A DNA stretch of 64,000 nt from Octopus vulgaris. Taxonomy: Eukaryota. How positions within the stretch are numbered: the stretch's first letter is position 1; every line of letters starts with the position of its first letter. The stretch is from positions 15,438,001 through 15,502,000 of the forward strand of contig OX597821.1 in the NCBI GenBank assembly GCA_951406725.2. Direction: 5' to 3'. Positions 9,646 through 56,200 of this stretch are shown piece by piece. The position numbers and the translations under genes were made by a program. Below the pieces are notes generated by a model, which ran no database searches, was not told where the DNA came from, and saw only the letters and a list, made by a program, of their open reading frames with translations.

Positions 9646-10455
9646 TTTTAAAGGTTGTTATTCTATAAATTCAATAGAATCTACAGATATTCTATGGAAT
9701 CTACAGCTACTGATTTTTGCTACAGCGTTTCGTATCGATATGAAATTTTGTAGCAAAAGTCAATGCTGGCTCTAGTTTCTATAGGATATCTGCAGAAACA
9801 ACCTTAAAAATAACGTAACAAGCGCTACTGACGCAGTGGGACGTGAAACTGACGTATAAAACTTTTAGTATACTTCATAGTATATTGTATTTGCATATCG
9901 AAGTGCCACGTACCTATAAACCTTTAATGTTTACATAGCAGTACAAGGAATGCATCTAACGTAACAAGCGCTACTGACGCAGTGGGACGTGAAACTGACG
10001 TATAAAACTTTTAGTATACTTCATAGTATATTGTATTTGCATATCGAAGTGCCACGTACCTATAAACCTTTAATGTTTACATAGCAGTACAAGGAATGCA
10101 TCTAATATATAAACTGAACTTAACACCGCTGTATGCGGTGGCTATATAAGCAATGTGTTCAGAGATAGAAGTCGATTAGATGGGTGCCGATTAAATGGGT
10201 GCACTCATTACCCACTTTTATCTCCGATCTCATTGCTTGTATACAACTGACGTATCGATACGAAACGCTGTAGCAAAAATCAGCGCTACATTTTCTATAC
10301 AATATCTGTGGAAACAACCGTAAAAATAATGTAACAAGTACTGCTGACGCAGTGGGATGTGGTATTTACTTACAAAAACATTTAGTATAATTCATAGTAC
10401 ATTGTACTTGCATACTGAGGTGCCCCTTTTCGCACAAACCTTTAGTTTACGGAGC
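9646..10455. repeat. Composite fold-back element with an exact 146-bp tandem duplication
   Basis: Palindrome centred on TATCGATA (9733-9740). Identical units at 9811-9956 and 9957-10102, a second palindrome at ~10145-10243, and a diverged arm copy at 10251-10455. Confidence 0.8.
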
Positions 10456-19525: not shown

Positions 19526-19918
19526 TACTCTTTACTCTTTTACTTGTTTCAGTCATTTGACTGCGGCCATGCTGGAGCACCGCCTTTAGTCGAGCAAATC
19601 GACCCCGGGACTTATTCTTTGTAAGCCCAGTACTTATTCTATCGGTCTGTTTTGCCGAACCGCTAAGTGACGGGGACGTAAACACACCAGTATCGGCTGT
19701 CAAGCAATGCTGGGGTGACAAACACAGACACACAAACATATACACACACACTTATATATATATACATATATACGACAGGCTTCTTTCCGTCAACCAAATC
19801 CACTCACAAGGCATTGGTCGGCCCGGGGCTATATTAGAAAACACTTGCCCAAGATTCCACGCAGTGGGACTGAACCCAGAACCATGTGGTTGGTTAGCAA
19901 GCGACTTACCACACAGCC
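19526..19918 (-). mobile_element. SINE family A
   Basis: Near-identical to 141-543. Confidence 0.92.
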
Positions 19919-20989: not shown

Positions 20990-21418
20990 GATTGCGTGGG
21001 AAGACGTTGCTTCCCAATCACATGGTCCCGGGTTCAGTCACATTACGTGGAGACTTAGGCAAGTGTCTTCTACTATAGCCGCGGGTCGGCCAAAGCCTTG
21101 TGATTGGATTTGGTAGACGGAAACTGAAAGAAGTTTATATGTATGTGTGTATATATATGTGTGTGTATATACATATATATGTATGTATATGTGTGTGTAT
21201 GCGTGTGTGTGTCTGTCGCCCACGACCGACTGACAATCGCTGCTGGCGTATTTACGTCGCTCTAACATTATTGTTTCGACATAAGCGACCGATAAAGTAA
21301 GTACCAGGTTTTAAAAAATAAGTTCTGAGGTCGATGCATTCGATTAGAATTTCAAGGTGGTGCCCTACCATACACGCAGTTAAATGGCTGAAACAAGTGA
21401 AAGATAATAGGAAAGAGA
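20990..21418 (+). mobile_element. SINE family A, diverged
   Basis: CATGGTCCCGGGTTCAGTC..GGCAAGTGTCTTCTACTATAGCC..GATTTGGTAGACGGAAACTGAAAG. Confidence 0.8.
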
Positions 21419-28487: not shown

Positions 28488-28652
28488 GGCGCAGGAGTGG
28501 CTGTTTGGTAAGTAGCTTGACTACCAACCACATGGTTCCGGGTTCAGTCCCAATGAGTGACACCTTGGGCAAGTGTCGTCTACTATAGCCTCGGGCTGAC
28601 CAAAGCCTTGTGAGTGGATTTGGTCGACGGAAACTGAAAGAAGCCCGTCGTA

Positions 28653-28726
<74 letters not shown>

Positions 28727-28929
28727 TGTGTCTGTTTGTCCCCTAGCATTGCTTGACAATCGATGCTGGTGTGTTTATGTCCCCGTTACTTAGCGGTTCG
28801 GCAAAAGAGACCGATAGAATAAGTACTGGGCTTACAAAAGAATAAGTCGAGTTGCTCGATTAAAGGCAGTGCTCCAGCATGGCCGCAGTCAAATGACTGA
28901 AACAAGCAAAAGAGTAAAAGAGTAAAAGA
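28488..28929 (+). mobile_element. SINE family A, full length
   Basis: tRNA head, internal microsatellite and (AAAAGAGT)n tail. Confidence 0.92.
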
Positions 28930-29801: not shown

Positions 29802-30461
29802 CGATGAGTTTCGGTAAACGGTGTCGAATTTAAAAATCTGTAGATAATAATTATAATATTTTATAAGCTTAAAACTTATAAGCGATCACCGAGCATTGAC
29901 TGAAGTAAATAGCCTAATATTGAGGCGCGCATATATATATATATATATATATATTAAACAACAGATACACTGAAGTGTCTATCCGCTAGAAATAAAAGTT
30001 AGAACCCTCATTCGGACCACCAAAAATTACATTGGAAATAACAAATACAACATATATATATGTATGTATATGTATGTATATACGTATGTGTGTGTGTGTG
30101 TGTGTGTTTATACTCTTTTATTCCTTTTCATCTTTGAGTTATTTGACTGCAGCATTGCTGGAACACCAAATTTAGTCGCAGAAATCAACCCCAGGACTTA
30201 CTCTTTGTAAGCCTAGTACTTATTCTATAGGTCTCTTTTCCCGAAACGGTAAGTTTCAATGAAATGAACGTACCAACATCGGTTGTCAGGCGATGGTGGG
30301 TGGGAGAGGGGGACAAACACAGACAGGAAGACACACACATAACTTCATATATATATATATACCGGAGTAAACACATAAATGTGAAACAAGGTGGAAAAAA
30401 GAGTACTCAAATACCAGTGGTAGAGTAGCTTTATTTAAAGCAGCAGAAAATTCAACAAAAC

Positions 30462-30499
30462 CTGTTACTCCGAGTTTCACGTTCCCATTCGTCGGACAG
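30462..30499 (-). ncRNA. Minimal type I hammerhead motif
   Basis: Minus strand: CTGT-CCGACGA-ATG-GGAA-CGT-GAA-ACT-CGG-AGT-A-ACAG. Confidence 0.6.
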
Positions 30500-30522
30500 T
30501 TTTTGTTAGAATCTAGCAAAAG

Positions 30523-30560
30523 CTGTCCGACGAACGGGAACGTGAAACTCAGAGTAACAG
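30523..30560 (+). ncRNA. Minimal type I hammerhead motif
   Basis: CTGT-CCGACGA-ACG-GGAA-CGT-GAA-ACT-CAG-AGT-A-ACAG. Stems I-III can pair, loop II is GNRA, and the predicted cut is after 30556. Confidence 0.68.
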
Positions 30561-30593
30561 GTTTTGTTGAATTTTCTGCTGCTTTAAATAAAG

Positions 30594-30625
<32 letters not shown>

Positions 30626-31159
30626 CGACGGTTTTCGTTCAGTTTCCGTCTACGAAATCAACTCATAGTAGAAGGCACTTGCTTAAGTTGCCACGCAGTT
30701 GGACTGAACCCAATATTCTTACCACACAGCCACGCCTATATATATGTATTTATCTAAACTAATATTTTCTCACTTTGGAACAGTAAAAAAATCCGTGCGG
30801 AATTTCAGCTTTGTATATACAGAGATAGAACATAAATACAGAACACATTCAATGCATACTAAAAAATAACTTGAATAGCCTAAAGAAAAAAAGAAATTAA
30901 GAGATCAAAAATAACTGTGTGGTGATAAACTAGGAAAGTTTAGCATTTTTAGCACTTTTACTCATAAAACAGAAAAATCACTTACAACTTATATTAAACC
31001 AAATAAATTATCGTTATTTCCTTATTACCCAAATTTTTTATTAGCCGCGATTCTCTGGTTTGTCATTCAAGATAAATTAGAAAAAAGATTAAAAATGTAG
31101 ACAATTTAAGTTTCAGTCGTAATGACTGAGGGGTAATAGAGCAATCATAATATTCATAC

Positions 31160-44005: not shown

Positions 44006-44413
44006 TCTTTTACTATTTTACTTGTTTCAGTCATTTGACTGCGGCCATGCTGGAGCACCGCCTTTAGTTGAGCAACTCGATCCCGGGACTTATTCTTTGT
44101 AAGCCCAGTACTTATTCTATCGGTCTCTTTTGCCGAACCGCTATGTGACGTGGACGTAAGCACAGCAACATCGGTTGTCAAGCAATGCTAGGGGGACAAA
44201 CAAAGACACACAAACATATATACACACACATATATATATATACATATATACGACAGGCTTCTTTCAGTTTCCGTCTACCAAATCCACTCACAAGGTATTG
44301 GTCGGCCCGGGGCTATAGCAGAAGACACTTACCCAAGATGCCACGCAGTGGGACTGAACCCGGAACCATGTGGTTGGTTAGCAAGCTACTTACCACACAG
44401 CCACTCCTGCGCC
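44003..44413 (-). mobile_element. SINE family A, full length
   Basis: Near-identical to 141-543. Confidence 0.93.
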
Positions 44414-44937
44414 TATATATCTGTTTTTAAAAAATTTTCACGTTAAAATACATATATATTTAACAATACATACACATACCAAACAATATATAATATACAT
44501 ATATACACCAAACATTCTGACGTAGGTACATGGCTACATACATATAGAGACATATATAGGCAAAACATAAATATATACAAATGCATATATATGCATGCTG
44601 CCACACACACACACACACAGACACGCGCGCGCGCACAAAATCTCTTGGTATGTACTTATACAACTTAGTTGTAACAGGCAAAAGTAAGAAAAGGAAAAAA
44701 AAACAACAGCGAATAACAAGTGAGTGGGGAGAAAGAAAAGGGGGGGAGAAGAATAACAAATGAAAGAAAAAGAAACAGAAAATTAGAGAGGGAAAGGGAA
44801 AAATAGATAGATGTATAGAGAGTGAAATGATTGGCGTTCCTATAAGTATACAAATATACAAATAAATATGTGCGCAAATATATGCCCCCCCCCACATATA
44901 TATGTATACATATACATCATAACGTATATACACAAGC

Positions 44938-45081
<144 letters not shown>

Positions 45082-45163
45082 ATATATACGCAGATGTTGT
45101 GCGTGCCACAAACCACCAACATGATGTTGTCGAAAGGGCAGCTGCTGAGCAACAATCTTTTTT

Positions 45164-46690
45164 GTGCATGGCACAAAAGATTGTACAGCAGCTGACCTGG
45201 CTTCATCAAACCCAAGCCCGCAGGTGGGACTACCCACTATATACCAGACCACCACAACAGCAAACAGACCCAGGATGGACACCACCGGTAACAACGTACG
45301 CCTCACCTCGATGCTCCTACTGAACATCAGAGGACTGCAAACACTCAGTAACAGGACAAAAATCCCGTTCCTGAGAGATTTTGTTGCATGCAATCAAGTC
45401 TTATGCATAGCACTAACGGAAACGCACCTGAAACCGGATATAGCAGATGCGGAGTTACACATACCACAGTATGCTGTACTACGGACCGACAGGAAAGAAA
45501 GGAGTCATGGAGGTGTTGCTATGTACATCCGTGAGGACCTCACACCCCAGGTCCTCTTGTCATACTCAAACTCGGTGTGTGACACACTAATTGTACATAT
45601 TAGGCAACTTGATGTAGTTGTGTGTGCTACATATCGCCCTCCAGATACCCCAAGCCATGTGGGCAAGTTTGAAGACTGCCTTATAAAAATAGAAGAAGTT
45701 CTAACCTCATTAGAACAACACATAAGTGTACTTCTTATGGGAGGCTTCAATCTGCCAAATGTCAGATGGCCCGAGGGCCTTTCTCTCCCAGGAATGACAA
45801 GATGTGAACGAGGACAGGCGAGGTCCCTCCTGAACCTCATCAACACCCTGTACATGGAGCAGGTAATACTCCAACCAACCAGGGCAGGTAACACACTGGA
45901 TCTCTGCTTCACAAATGACATGGGTCTCATCCATAATGTGAAAGTGACACCGACACTACTCTCGGATCACAACATGATAGAGCTGACCATGTACGGGCCA
46001 AAAGAGAGCACGGACATGCAGCCTACAAGAAACCCTCAGAATCTTTCCAGCTTGAACTACCATAAGGCAAACTGGAAACAAATTGAGAAAGAGATCCTCA
46101 AACAAAACTGGCCTAAATGTCTCTCCTCGCCAGACATCGACGTGAAACTTCAACAATTCATGTCTGTAATGCAAGCCATATGCTACAAATGTGTCCCAGA
46201 GAGAAAGGCCACCGTACACAAGAACAAAATTCCCAGAGAGAGGAAAATTCTAATGAGACGGCGTACAAAATTTTCAAATCGCCTAAACAAACAGATTGAA
46301 AGCAGTGAAAAGTCCCGCCTAAAAATAAAACTGTTGGAAATCGAAAAATGTCTGCAACTCTCCCATGAAAAGGAAAGAGCAGACAAAGAAGCCTCGGCTA
46401 TAGACAACATAAAATCTAACCCCAGAGCTTTCTACAGGTATGCCAAAGAAACAGCTACGGTGCACTGTAGAATAGGGCCACTCCTCGAAAAGGATGGCAC
46501 ACTTACAGGAAAACCAATGAGGGTAAGTGAAATACTGAATGAGCAATTCAAGAGTGTTTTCACTCCACCCCTTGGGCATCTCCAAATCACCAATCCAACT
46601 GACTTTTTTACCACTGCAGATATAAAATCAGAGGCGGCGACGATAGATTACATCGATATAGGAAGACGATGTAATCAAGGCTATAGATGA
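45164..46690 (+). pseudogene. LINE ORF2 N-terminal part: apurinic-like endonuclease
   Basis: Motifs NIRGL, IALTETHL, GGVAMYI, YRPP, GGFN (GDFN mutated), PTR..NTLDL and SDH. A frameshift occurs near 46660. Confidence 0.92.
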
Positions 46691-46691
46691 A

Positions 46692-48254
46692 ATGAAAACA
46701 GACTCAGCTACTGGCCCCGATGGATTCCCGGCAATCCTCCTAAAAGCATGTAAGAGAGTCCTAGCAAGACCACTGCAGTTCCTCTTTCAGAGCTTCCTTG
46801 CAGCTGGCAAACTTCCAAGAAAACTGAAGGAAGGTAAAATATGCCCCATTCATAAAGGAGGTAGCAGAGCGGAAGCCAAGAACTATAGACCTATCTCTCT
46901 GACCTCACACATCAGCAAGGTCATGGAACGAATAGTCAGAAGGAAGCTGATCACCTTCCTTGAAGAAAATGACTTGCTGCCCGACACCCAACATGGTTTC
47001 CGACCAGGGAGAAGCTGTTTAACTCAGCTCCTACAACACTATGACTGGGTGCTGAAACGGCTGCTCAACCACTCAAATGTGGAAGTCATATATCTCGACT
47101 TTGCAAAGGCCTTTGATAAAGTCGATCATGGAATGATATGTCACAAACTGCGTGATCTCAACATAGTTGGAAAACTGGGAGAATGGCTTCATGACTTTCT
47201 GAAAGATAGAAGTCAGGTGGTAGTGGCCATTTACACGCAAATAGTGAGCGGTGTTCCACAGGGCACTGTTCTGGGACCACTACTGTTCATAATGGCCCTC
47301 TCAATCATGCCCTCAGCCACGCAGAGAGCCACGATCACAAGTTATGCAGATGATACAAAAGATTCACAGGCAATACAGAACCCTGAGGACACCAAACACC
47401 TGCAATGTGAGCTAGACAAAATATACAAGTGGGCCGAAAAGAATAGCATGCAGTTCAATGCTGAAAAGTTTCAAGCTCTATACTATCAGCATGCAAAACT
47501 AAATGCAATACCCAATGAATACACTGGACCCGGAGGAATAGCAATCCCAGAGGCACAATCAGTGCGTGACCTAGGTATTTACATGAGTGATGACGCGACC
47601 TTTCATGTACATGTTGCTAAATTGGCAATGAAATGTAGACGACTGGCCGGATGGATCCTCAGAACCTTTAGAACAAAAGAACAAGAAACTATGATGGTCC
47701 TCTGGAGGACACTTGTCCTAAGCCACTTTGACTACTGCTCTCAGTTATGGTCACCATCCAGGGTCAAGTTGATCACAGAGCTCGAGGCGATCCAACGTAG
47801 CTACACGAAGAAGATAGCCTCTATGCAGAATGTAAGCTACTGGGAAAGACTCAAGAGATTAAAATTATATTCCCTGGAGCGTAGGCGGGAAAGATATGCC
47901 ATAATATACATCTGGATGATCCTGGAGGGAAGTGTCCTGAACTTTGGCATCGAGAGTTACGCAAATGCCAGAACTGGGCGCCACTGCGTGGTGCCTAGGA
48001 CTCCGAACTTGCCATCAAGATGTAGGACAAGATTCTGTGATAGCCTGGGCTTCCGAGGCCCACAGCTCTTCAATATCCTCCCGAAGAACCTAAGAGACCT
48101 GCATGGGGTGGATACAGATATCTTTAAAATGAAGCTGGATCTCTTCCTGTCAGGTGTCCCAGATGAACCAACTTCACGGCAGGAGGGGCAGATGAGGGCA
48201 GCTGCATCGAACTCTCTCATGCACCAAATAGCAGTTGCTAGAAAGCCTTCATGA
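46692..48254 (+). CDS. LINE ORF2 C-terminal part: reverse transcriptase (frameshifted from the APE part)
   Basis: Motifs GPDG, NYRPISLTS, QHGFR, YLDFAKAFDKV, GVPQGTVLGP, YADD, RDLG and YWERLK.LKLYSLERRRERY. Confidence 0.93.
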   Translation: MKTDSATGPDGFPAILLKACKRVLARPLQFLFQSFLAAGKLPRKLKEGKICPIHKGGSRAEAKNYRPISLTSHISKVMERIVRRKLITFLEENDLLPDTQHGFRPGRSCLTQLLQHYDWVLKRLLNHSNVEVIYLDFAKAFDKVDHGMICHKLRDLNIVGKLGEWLHDFLKDRSQVVVAIYTQIVSGVPQGTVLGPLLFIMALSIMPSATQRATITSYADDTKDSQAIQNPEDTKHLQCELDKIYKWAEKNSMQFNAEKFQALYYQHAKLNAIPNEYTGPGGIAIPEAQSVRDLGIYMSDDATFHVHVAKLAMKCRRLAGWILRTFRTKEQETMMVLWRTLVLSHFDYCSQLWSPSRVKLITELEAIQRSYTKKIASMQNVSYWERLKRLKLYSLERRRERYAIIYIWMILEGSVLNFGIESYANARTGRHCVVPRTPNLPSRCRTRFCDSLGFRGPQLFNILPKNLRDLHGVDTDIFKMKLDLFLSGVPDEPTSRQEGQMRAAASNSLMHQIAVARKPS

Positions 48255-48345
48255 AGTGAAACCAAGTAGCAACACCAAATGGCGGTGCCCCAGCATGGCC
48301 ACAGCTCATAAGCTGAAGCTAGAATCAATCAATCAATCAATCAAT

Positions 48346-48420
<75 letters not shown>

Positions 48421-48452
48421 TTTATTTTAAGCAGCAGAAAATTCAACAAAAT

Positions 48453-48490
48453 CTGTTACTCTGAGTTTCTCGTTGCCGTTCATCAGACAG
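48453..48490 (-). ncRNA. Minimal type I hammerhead motif
   Basis: Exact reverse complement of 48505-48542. Confidence 0.65.
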
Positions 48491-48504
48491 TTTTCTAGCA
48501 AAAA

Positions 48505-48542
48505 CTGTCTGATGAACGGCAACGAGAAACTCAGAGTAACAG
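48505..48542 (+). ncRNA. Minimal type I hammerhead motif
   Basis: CTGT-CTGATGA-A-CG-GCAA-CG-A-GAA-ACT-CAG-AGT-A-ACAG. The CUGAUGA/GAAA core is canonical with a GUA triplet and a predicted cut after 48538, but stem II has only 2 bp. Confidence 0.68.
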
Positions 48543-48644
48543 ATTTTGTTGAATTTTCTGCTGCTTAAAATAAAGCATATTACTCTACCACTGGTATTTG
48601 AGTACTCTTTTTTCCACCTTGTTTCACATTTATGTGTTTACCCC

Positions 48645-48733
<89 letters not shown>

Positions 48734-50196: not shown

Positions 50197-51211
50197 CAGG
50201 GGTTGGACAAAATAACGGAAACACCTAGCATCATAGCATCATAATTTTGAAATATCTATAAAACCGTCAAAAGCTTGTTTATTTTTATGTTTTTTTTAAT
50301 TTATTATTAGTGTAGCTTCATATGTTTTGCTAAAATCGCCGTTTTGTTTTTCAGATATTATCAGAAAATGGTAAATAAATTCATTAAAATGACTGTCAAA
50401 GAGATCAAGTTGTTGCTGCTCGTATGGCAGGCGCTAGCGTAACGAAAACAGCCGAAATGTTTGGTACTGTCTCGAAAGTAATGACGGACTTTGAGAAAGA
50501 GGGAAAAACCTCATCGAAACAAAACTCCGGAAGAAAACCAAAACATTCAGATAGGGACCGTCGGACTCTTACGCATATTGTTAGAAAGGATCACAAAAGT
50601 ACAGATCCAAAAATTACTGCAGAACTTAGCGACCACCTCGAGAACCTAGTTTCCACAAAACCTCTTCGCTGGGAGCTGCACAAATCCGGATTTCACGGGA
50701 GGGCAGCAATCAGAAAACAACTACTTTCAAAAGCAAACGTGTGGAGACAACCAAAAGAAGCATTTGACCCAGACTGCCTCCTTCCAACTGCTAAACATGA
50801 AGGAGGATATGTGATAATCTGGGGGAGGGGTCAATATCTTCGAAATCCAATGATTTCCCTTCATGGCAGAATTAATAGTCAAGATTATTTCAGCATTTTA
50901 TCTCATCAAATTCATCCTATGGTTGCGGAACTGTTTCCGGAGAGAAAGCCAATCTTTCAGGATGAGAATGCACCAATTCACACAGCTAAAGTTGTTCCTG
51001 AATGGCTTGAGGAACATTCTAGTGAAGTTGAACATCTTACGTGGCCACCACAGTCCCCAGATCTCAATATTATTGAACATTTATGGTGCATTTTAGAAAA
51101 GCAAGTGAGGATTCGATATCCTCCACCATTATCACTACAAGTACTGGAGACTGTTTTAAAATAAATTTGTTTGAAATTTTAAGGTGTTTCCATTATTTAG
51201 TCCAACCATTG
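50197..51211 (+). mobile_element. Tc1-family DNA transposon, internally deleted
   Basis: TA|CAGGGGTTGGACAAAATAACGGAAACACC and reverse complement TA|CAATGGTTGGACTAAATAATGGAAACACC; TA TSDs on both sides. Confidence 0.92.
50424..51164 (+). pseudogene. Tc1 transposase, defective
   Basis: SGRKPK motif, HTH region, FQDENAPIHTAK and WPPQSPDLNIIEHLW. The segment carrying the first catalytic Asp (FSDE) is missing between KANV and WRQP. Confidence 0.88.
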
Positions 51212-55020: not shown

Positions 55021-56200
55021 CAATTGTTGTGCCTATTATGTTCCCTGTTTTGTCAATATCCTTTATATATTTATGCTTAAATTTGTTTATCTTCTTGTCG
55101 TTGTGTATATCATATTAAACATTTCGGTACGTCTTTAAGTTTTTTTTATTGTAAACGGTGTTTGAAGCCTAGCACTCGAAATTATCATTATTTTGTTTTT
55201 GTTTCATAGATCAGTTTGTTTAAATCAAAACATTTAAATTTGTTAAAGAGTTGAACATTATAGAGCAATGATATGATTCCTTTTATGGTCACAGAGATCC
55301 AAAGCTAAATCAAAATATTCACATAAAACACGGAAAACAATAGACAAATTTAACTGAAAGGCTGAGATCAACAAGAAATACAGACAGATTGATAAATAAG
55401 TTATCACACACACAAAAAAAAAAATGATTGCTGAATTGAACAAAAGAATAACAAGAGAAGGCTCCTCAAATATAAGTAGGAGCACTTGCATGAGGTATCT
55501 CGAGGTAGCTCGCATAAAATTCACACAGGTTTGACTCGCCGAATACAATGCTTTCTATCATTTGTATTAATTATTTGCAGATGGGTGGAAACTAAAACAT
55601 GCATAACGATTTCATTTCAATTAATAAGAAACTTATATATTTGAACTTTAATATACTGCACTAGATATTGTGTTTTGTTATATATGATTATTAATCGATA
55701 CCAGTCAGTATCTAGTAATTTATTTCATCTCACAAACTACAAAAACTAAAACGAAAACAAAAAAAGTTGAACGAATTAAGGAATTAATACGGCTCGACCG
55801 CGTATTAGCGCTGTCAACGACTCAAATCTACTGGGATTCTTGCTCTCATGCTTAGGATTTAAAATGTCACAAGATGAATAAACAGAGTTCTACTATCCTT
55901 CAACGAAGTTAACGTTTCAGAGACAATATGTATCCGATATTCCTTTGACACTTCGAATCCAATCACTTCAGAAAGGTCACAACTTCAACTTGTCAAGCAT
56001 TAATGGAAATATTAGAATATACACAGGTTTTTTGTAGAGTATACGTGAGTATATATATGTATGTTCATAAAGATGTGTTTGTACTACGTACATAAGTGAC
56101 TATGTATGTATGTGGGGGCGTGTACATGATTGTATATGTGCTTATGTATTGGTGTGAATGTATATCATACGTGTATATATAATGTATAATATATATATAT

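Follow-up and report, generated by a model that had tools for sequence, protein, structure and literature searches.

It is likely that both palindromes in the window, as we call the whole 64,000-nucleotide stretch analysed here, are stubs left on insertion by a Penelope-like retrotransposon (PLE), probably of the Hydra clade; within each, a single source RNA most likely served as the template for both mirror arms as integration took place. The architecture and the idea of snap-back are already in print, and a further PLE family of this kind will not surprise a specialist. The new lead is a hairpin in the tail that is shared with some Hydra-clade elements, and a set of asymmetric joints in sequencing runs is also worth following.

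Architecture of the Two Palindromes

Each copy is ordered as tail, arm, centre and inverted arm, with the 5' ends meeting centrally and the 3' ends facing (TA)n, so that a head-to-head, inverted and 5'-truncated arrangement is found in both. In copy 1, a (TA)n tract (30347..30361) is followed by the tail (30361..30428, reverse strand), the tailed arm (30429..30509, reverse strand), an AAT spacer at the centre (30510..30512), the tailless arm (30513..30593, forward strand) and a second (TA)n tract (30594..30622). The tailed arm carries a type I hammerhead motif (core 30495-30466, predicted cut after 30466) and the tailless arm another (core 30527-30556), both with the U4C change. Copy 2 comprises a tailless arm (48420..48494, reverse strand; hammerhead core 48486-48457), a tailed arm (48495..48575, forward strand; core 48509-48538, canonical CUGAUGA) and a tail (48576..48647, forward strand), after which (TA)n begins. 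The copy 1 tail lacks four nucleotides that are present in copy 2 and in many contigs of the family; family contigs show an insertion and loose ends at 30427.

The palindromes lie where the initial annotation had placed them, and all the letters it listed are as described. Three features go beyond it: the hammerheads of each palindrome sit on opposite strands, a tail of 68-72 nt is present on one side only in both copies, and the arms of copy 1 are not identical, differing by four transitions. The tailless arm ends 37 nt beyond the predicted cut in both copies alike, and the tailed arm 108 nt beyond it (measured in copy 2), both end positions being common to the two copies. The fold-back point, which had been called nearly the same, is indeed close but not fixed, since the centres are offset by 9 nt.

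The term "double hammerhead" holds in so far as each arm contains one motif. However, the motifs lie on opposite strands, and an RNA running across a centre is predicted to form a hairpin of 75-79 bp (about -127 to -131 kcal/mol); the name is therefore a misnomer, and neither copy is, on the predicted fold, a working double ribozyme.

The Insertion Site

Copy 1 splits a dispersed SINE-like repeat at its central TA tract, with the left half at 30131..30345 and the right half at 30623..30760, both on the forward strand. The site is empty in four paralogues within the window, in which the two halves are joined by a short CA/TA tract only. The right flank of copy 2 matches the same repeat family. 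Members of this family were observed at 166-560, 19547-19880, 21030-21335, 28540-28902 and 44025-44430, and their central CA/TA tract is the landing site, both palindromes being located in such a tract. Target duplications are unreadable because the insertion took place inside (TA)n. The window as a whole is AT-rich, animal-like DNA with abundant (TA)n and (CA)n runs.

Hammerhead Motifs and Predicted Activity

With a hammerhead descriptor, each of the four arms yields one motif and the rest of the 64 kb none; shuffled windows yield a mean of 0.07 (30 shuffles). Rfam models gave no match at the gathering score over the whole 64 kb; among 34 weak matches around copy 1, the top ones were miRNA-precursor models fitting the hairpin, and none was a hammerhead. 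Folding of single arms was no better than that of shuffled sequences (z -1.0 to 1.4). The monomer hammerhead fold, with the outer helix excluded, reached -0.4 and -2.4 kcal/mol, compared with minima of -12.2 and -12.8 kcal/mol.

The core of copy 2 is intact (CUGANGA / GAAA / NUH), whereas that of copy 1 carries U4C, a natural variant whose activity is described as considerably lowered in vitro (PMC3088659). The earlier proposal that the changes between copies spare the ribozyme fold is correct as to the letters; however, U4C, in contrast to the N7 change, affects the catalytic core. The hammerhead is predicted to be inactive in both copies, and a ribozyme function of these copies is disfavoured because the motif would be buried in a long hairpin and copy 1 has U4C. 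Selection on the fold, which the initial annotation had also suggested, can thus plausibly be assumed in the source elements, though not in the two copies. The cleavage site is uncleaved in all four arms.

Variation in the family is in keeping with this distinction. Within the palindromic stem III, the central position is freely variable (about 60/22/18% in run X1) while neighbouring positions show no variant row, as expected of a dimer-type hammerhead (PMC4209133). Stem II consists of 2 bp plus flanking N-N, and the bases flanking stem II also vary among Hydra elements, so the A-A found there in copy 2 need not be damage. Variation at loop positions supports constraint in the source elements, not a function of these stubs.

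Probable Relationship to Penelope-Like Elements

Known PLE traits include inverted 5'-truncated copies, a one-sided tail, a hammerhead in the terminal repeat, and (TA)n or microsatellite targets (PMC8557442). The traits of EN+ PLEs found here are the inverted truncated copy (2/2), the one-sided tail (2/2) and, by descriptor, a type I hammerhead near the 3' end (4/4 arms). Insertion into (TA)n and the hammerhead layout match the Hydra clade, for which 26 of 27 families are given as (TA)n inserters in the table of PMC8557442; they are characteristic of that clade without being confined to it. At the protein level, the clade is marked by the motifs RWK and DKT, by the lack of CCHH and by its place in RT phylogeny. 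No reading frame of a parent element, be it the telomerase-like reverse transcriptase (RT) or the GIY-YIG endonuclease that EN+ PLEs encode, was present among the complex open reading frames of at least 75 aa in the 64-kb window (56/56 scanned), which yielded only a LINE-type EN/RT and a Tc1-type transposase. With no parent protein found, membership in the PLEs rests on RNA-level traits.

The closest likeness is to Hydra-clade elements such as Hydra-2_Amil, Hydra-2_Ajap and Penelope-3_HM (Craig et al. 2021, PMC8557442), with which the stubs share a type I hammerhead with short stem I, a stem III that is palindromic (ACTC-N-GAGT), a stem II with one additional base on either side, and (TA)n targets; Penelope-13_HM also has a noted inverted 5'-truncated copy. 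In contrast to these elements, the stubs comprise only the terminal 150 nt, with no open reading frame, and their two-base-pair stem II compares with 3-7 bp in the Hydra table. Hydra-1_Obim, the one octopus family listed there, has a different hammerhead, so the stubs belong to another family.

The insertions of Penelope and Poseidon with inverted pLTRs and a tail (PMC3846280; Frangieh et al. 2024, PMC11167929) are described with the same head-to-head terminal repeats, one-sided tail, AT-rich target and uncleaved hammerhead. They differ in that the stub tail is 68-72 nt long, compared with the usual 30-40 bp, and in that the stubs consist of only the two ends, with their 5' ends close together. 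The dimeric minimal hammerheads of PLEs (Cervera and De la Pena 2014, PMC4209133) share the palindromic helix III that implies activity as a dimer, and dual motifs on opposite strands, 100-700 bp apart, were already noted there in Schistosoma; unlike them, the stubs do not have the G10.1-C11.1 pair beside the core, and have a very short helix II and, in copy 1, U4C. Octopus PLE families are reported as numerous in PMC13282606, the main text of which does not mention ribozymes. A literature search, with most subscription papers outside its reach, returned no paper on this stub family or on twin priming in PLEs.

The Family in Sequencing Runs

A query of one arm plus the tail was compared with four of 24 sequencing runs (X1, X4, X6 and X21). 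It matched 6737 contigs in X1, 1988 in X4 and 4145 in X6; depth is not equal to copy number in these counts, and the family is clearly large across three organism labels. Viral and prokaryote collections scanned with the element gave no matches. A single metagenome match (locus L001), 23 nt long and on an unrelated gene-dense contig, was judged to be due to chance.

Two of the six diagnostic sites that distinguish the copies were readable in the runs. At 30461, the letter of copy 2 accounts for 17%, 27% and 29% of the depth in three runs, and both letters are common alleles of the family. At 30479, the letter of copy 1 is in the majority and a third letter reaches 7-11%, while that of copy 2 is absent among letters at 2% or more; it appears to be rare in the family, yet it stands on both arms of copy 2. 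The remaining sites (30437, 30484, 30491 and 30494) gave no row, a silence that is uninformative since the private site 30487 is silent as well.

In X4, 13 contigs have the tailless end at 30429 directly next to (TA)n, as do 22 contigs in X6. On the 5' side, loose ends fall at 30501 and 30503 with low agreement (0.47-0.52, among the loose ends listed), suggesting that the 5' ends cluster while their junctions vary. Among the 15 joints listed, three connect opposite strands (30410>30484, 30415>30493 and 30426>30501), each seen in one contig per run at 80% likeness. In every case the inverted piece spans sequence that is missing from the tail-side piece, and one of the joints stops at 30426, beside the tailless start. 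These asymmetric joints have the pattern of twin priming, although a later deletion of one arm could look alike. No symmetric fold-back joint is present among the joints listed, which we put down, without proof, to short-read assembly.

The raw-read run, X21, gave eight reads in 1934 million letters, all on the tail and none on the arm, and bears on neither the palindrome nor copy number. The reads span 30355-30426, and five of the eight run into (TA)n right after 30425, which suggests that a solo tail without any arm exists. Joints at 30400>30462, seen in X1 and X4 under two organism labels, mark a variant in which the spacer separating the tail from the hammerhead is different and shorter, probably another subfamily.

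Arms Group by Locus

In a four-arm alignment with 75 gap-free columns, six informative columns join the arms by locus and none joins them by tailed or tailless side, with three singletons. Each arm is thus nearer to its own partner, as the initial annotation had held, within the compass of four arms and two loci; the left-versus-right clustering that it had named as refuting has no column among the four arms. The arms of copy 1 differ from each other at 3/72 positions (4/81 over the full arms, all four transitions) and those of copy 2 at 0/72, compared with 7-8 of 72 between copies. At 30506, an outer position of helix I, one arm of copy 1 has A and the other G, both of which pair with U; the A form is also seen in family loose ends behind 30503, and may be a family allele and not a private change, which would hint at two templates.

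Had the palindrome been mobile as a unit, as a MITE, a fold-back DNA element or a retrozyme-like unit, the arms should group by side. Six parallel changes would be required instead, with a probability of 1e-7, 3e-4 or 0.016 at 5, 10 or 15% divergence per arm. The short, non-coding structure, the terminal inverted repeats, the TA targets and the high copy number would all suit such a unit, but the centres differ and one end is asymmetric. Animal non-LTR retrozymes resemble the stubs as short non-coding repeats with type I hammerheads and a link to PLE terminal repeats, yet they are described as head-to-tail tandems with ribozymes on one strand (10.64898/2026.07.22.740005), whereas the arms here are inverted head-to-head in both copies. 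We regard mobility as a unit as very unlikely.

The initial annotation had also offered gene conversion within the hairpin, or within a cruciform, as a means of homogenising the arms after insertion. Near-perfect hairpins of 75-79 bp would make this possible, and the arms do differ between copies more than the tails: the shared arm differences amount to 6/72 and the tail differences to 1/68, an excess that is unexplained (Fisher p 0.12). Four of the six diagnostic sites being unreadable, and the copy 2 letter at 30479 appearing rare, leave conversion some room. Against it, copy 1 has kept four mismatches in 81 positions unrepaired, at a pace that agrees with the tail, where the copies differ by one substitution and a 4-nt indel and 1.7 substitutions are expected from arm divergence; and conversion is unneeded at 30461, where both alleles are widespread. 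Conversion after insertion is consequently improbable, and this part of the earlier proposal is not sustained. As the 30461 letter is a family-wide polymorphism and the 4/81 differences of copy 1 are in line with ageing, most likely the arms started out identical rather than being homogenised afterwards. Paired ends that were copied at insertion and then drifted would show this pattern of within-copy divergence, and there is no sign of conversion in it.

A fold-back artefact of assembly or library preparation would equally produce matching arms. No raw read crosses a centre, no symmetric fold-back joint is among those listed, and the arms of copy 2 are identical, all of which speak for an artefact. 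It would not explain the four differences between the arms of copy 1 or the two exact 3' ends common to both copies; moreover, copy 1 interrupts its site cleanly, paralogues have that site empty, and the layout is as described for PLEs. An artefact is the least probable of the explanations weighed here.

Proposed Priming from Both Target Strands

The 6:0 split by locus and the differing centres support one template per insertion. How two arms were written from it can be read in two ways, which a by-locus tree cannot separate because two cDNAs from nicked strands give the same tree as snap-back. The origin of the inverted ends and of the one-sided tail is described as open in PMC8557442 and PMC11167929. 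According to the latter, a PLE protein in purified form cleaves DNA rich in AT, makes nicks in both strands and extends them; it begins reverse transcription at two internal positions that lie apart by the length of the genomic tail, with no need for hammerhead cleavage.

We lean towards two-ended priming of the stubs from both nicked target strands. The GIY-YIG nuclease of the element would introduce nicks in both strands within a stretch of (TA)n, and each 3' end set free in this way would serve as the primer for reverse transcription from one of the two internal start sites that lie on either side of the tail. Both cDNAs would extend to the 5' end of the RNA, just upstream of helix I of the hammerhead, and would be joined through 1-4 nt of microhomology. 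The newborn arms would be identical and later drift apart as LTRs do, with the hammerhead as terminal-repeat cargo that is copied uncleaved; such a course of events agrees with the cleavage site being uncleaved in every one of the four arms.

Several observations weigh against this reading of the stubs as PLE insertions primed from both strands. Only two full copies are available, no parent reading frame was found, and the sole raw-read run has no arm reads. A 2-nt snap-back suits the centre of copy 2 no less well, the tail is longer than usual, stem II is shorter than in the Hydra table, and the excess of arm over tail differences is not accounted for.

Snap-back templating, the mechanism put forward by the initial annotation, is a possible route but not the sole one. 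A cDNA started at the tail end would fold back near the 5' end of the RNA and prime the second arm on itself, after which a nuclease would trim the second arm at a fixed site and leave the tail on one side. Self-priming of PLEs was proposed in 2013 from head-to-head junctions (Arkhipova et al. 2013, PMC3846280). A 2-nt fold-back accounts for the centre of copy 2, and both arms of that copy carry the 30479 letter that is not listed at 2% or more in the runs. However, snap-back requires a second precise cut at an identical place in each copy, and in vitro this end is a start site of reverse transcription (PMC11167929). The asymmetric joints favour two-strand priming because snap-back alone cannot make them; they would require a later deletion. 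We favour priming from both strands at two start sites, with no sharp separation from snap-back, which we hold to be the less probable of the two.

As the stubs, at 160-230 nt and in high copy, each record one centre and two ends, the formation of PLE ends could be tested by counting. Divergence between the arms dates each insertion, as it does for paired LTRs.

A Hairpin in the Tail

The tail opens with a predicted bulged hairpin, located at 30402..30426 on the reverse strand in copy 1 and at 48582-48606 on the forward strand in copy 2, which begins 44 nt beyond the predicted cut. Its loop base (30418) is variable among family contigs. Compared by eye, the supplement of PMC8557442 shows a similar bulged hairpin (RCTC-stem-loop-GAGY-ACT) in the 3' ends of three of its six new Hydra consensus sequences, starting about 44 nt beyond the cut in Hydra-2_Amil, 39 in Hydra-2_Ajap and 48 in Hydra-1_Crog (with one mismatch), a range of about 39-48 nt that brackets the 44 of the stubs. 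Hydra-1_Ajap has one at its 5' start, which brings the number to four of the six consensus sequences; none was seen by eye in the consensus of Hydra-1_Amil or Hydra-1_Obim. The words "hairpin" and "stem-loop" are absent from the main text of PMC8557442, and no later description turned up in the literature search. At 55461 in the window the bare motif matches a third time; this match has no hammerhead upstream and was taken as chance.

The tail hairpin may be a candidate signal for the start of reverse transcription. Tentatively, we suggest that an undescribed Hydra-clade hairpin about 40-48 nt past the cut positions two flanking start sites for reverse transcription, and that two-strand priming on one short RNA end writes mirror stubs of fixed length in large numbers. 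If this is true, the family would be a natural data set with which to settle twin priming versus snap-back as the source of PLE inverted repeats.

Other Elements in the Window

The LINE-type EN/RT lies at 45149-48254. It is part of an element (45149-48345) with an AP endonuclease and an RT split by one frameshift near 46670, and the (CAAT)n end of this element adjoins the TA run carrying copy 2. The LINE was rejected as a partner of the palindromes, copy 1 having no such neighbour. A remnant of a Tc1/mariner-type transposase occupies 50388-51164, and a near-exact direct tandem duplication with a 146-nt period is found at about 9810-10100.
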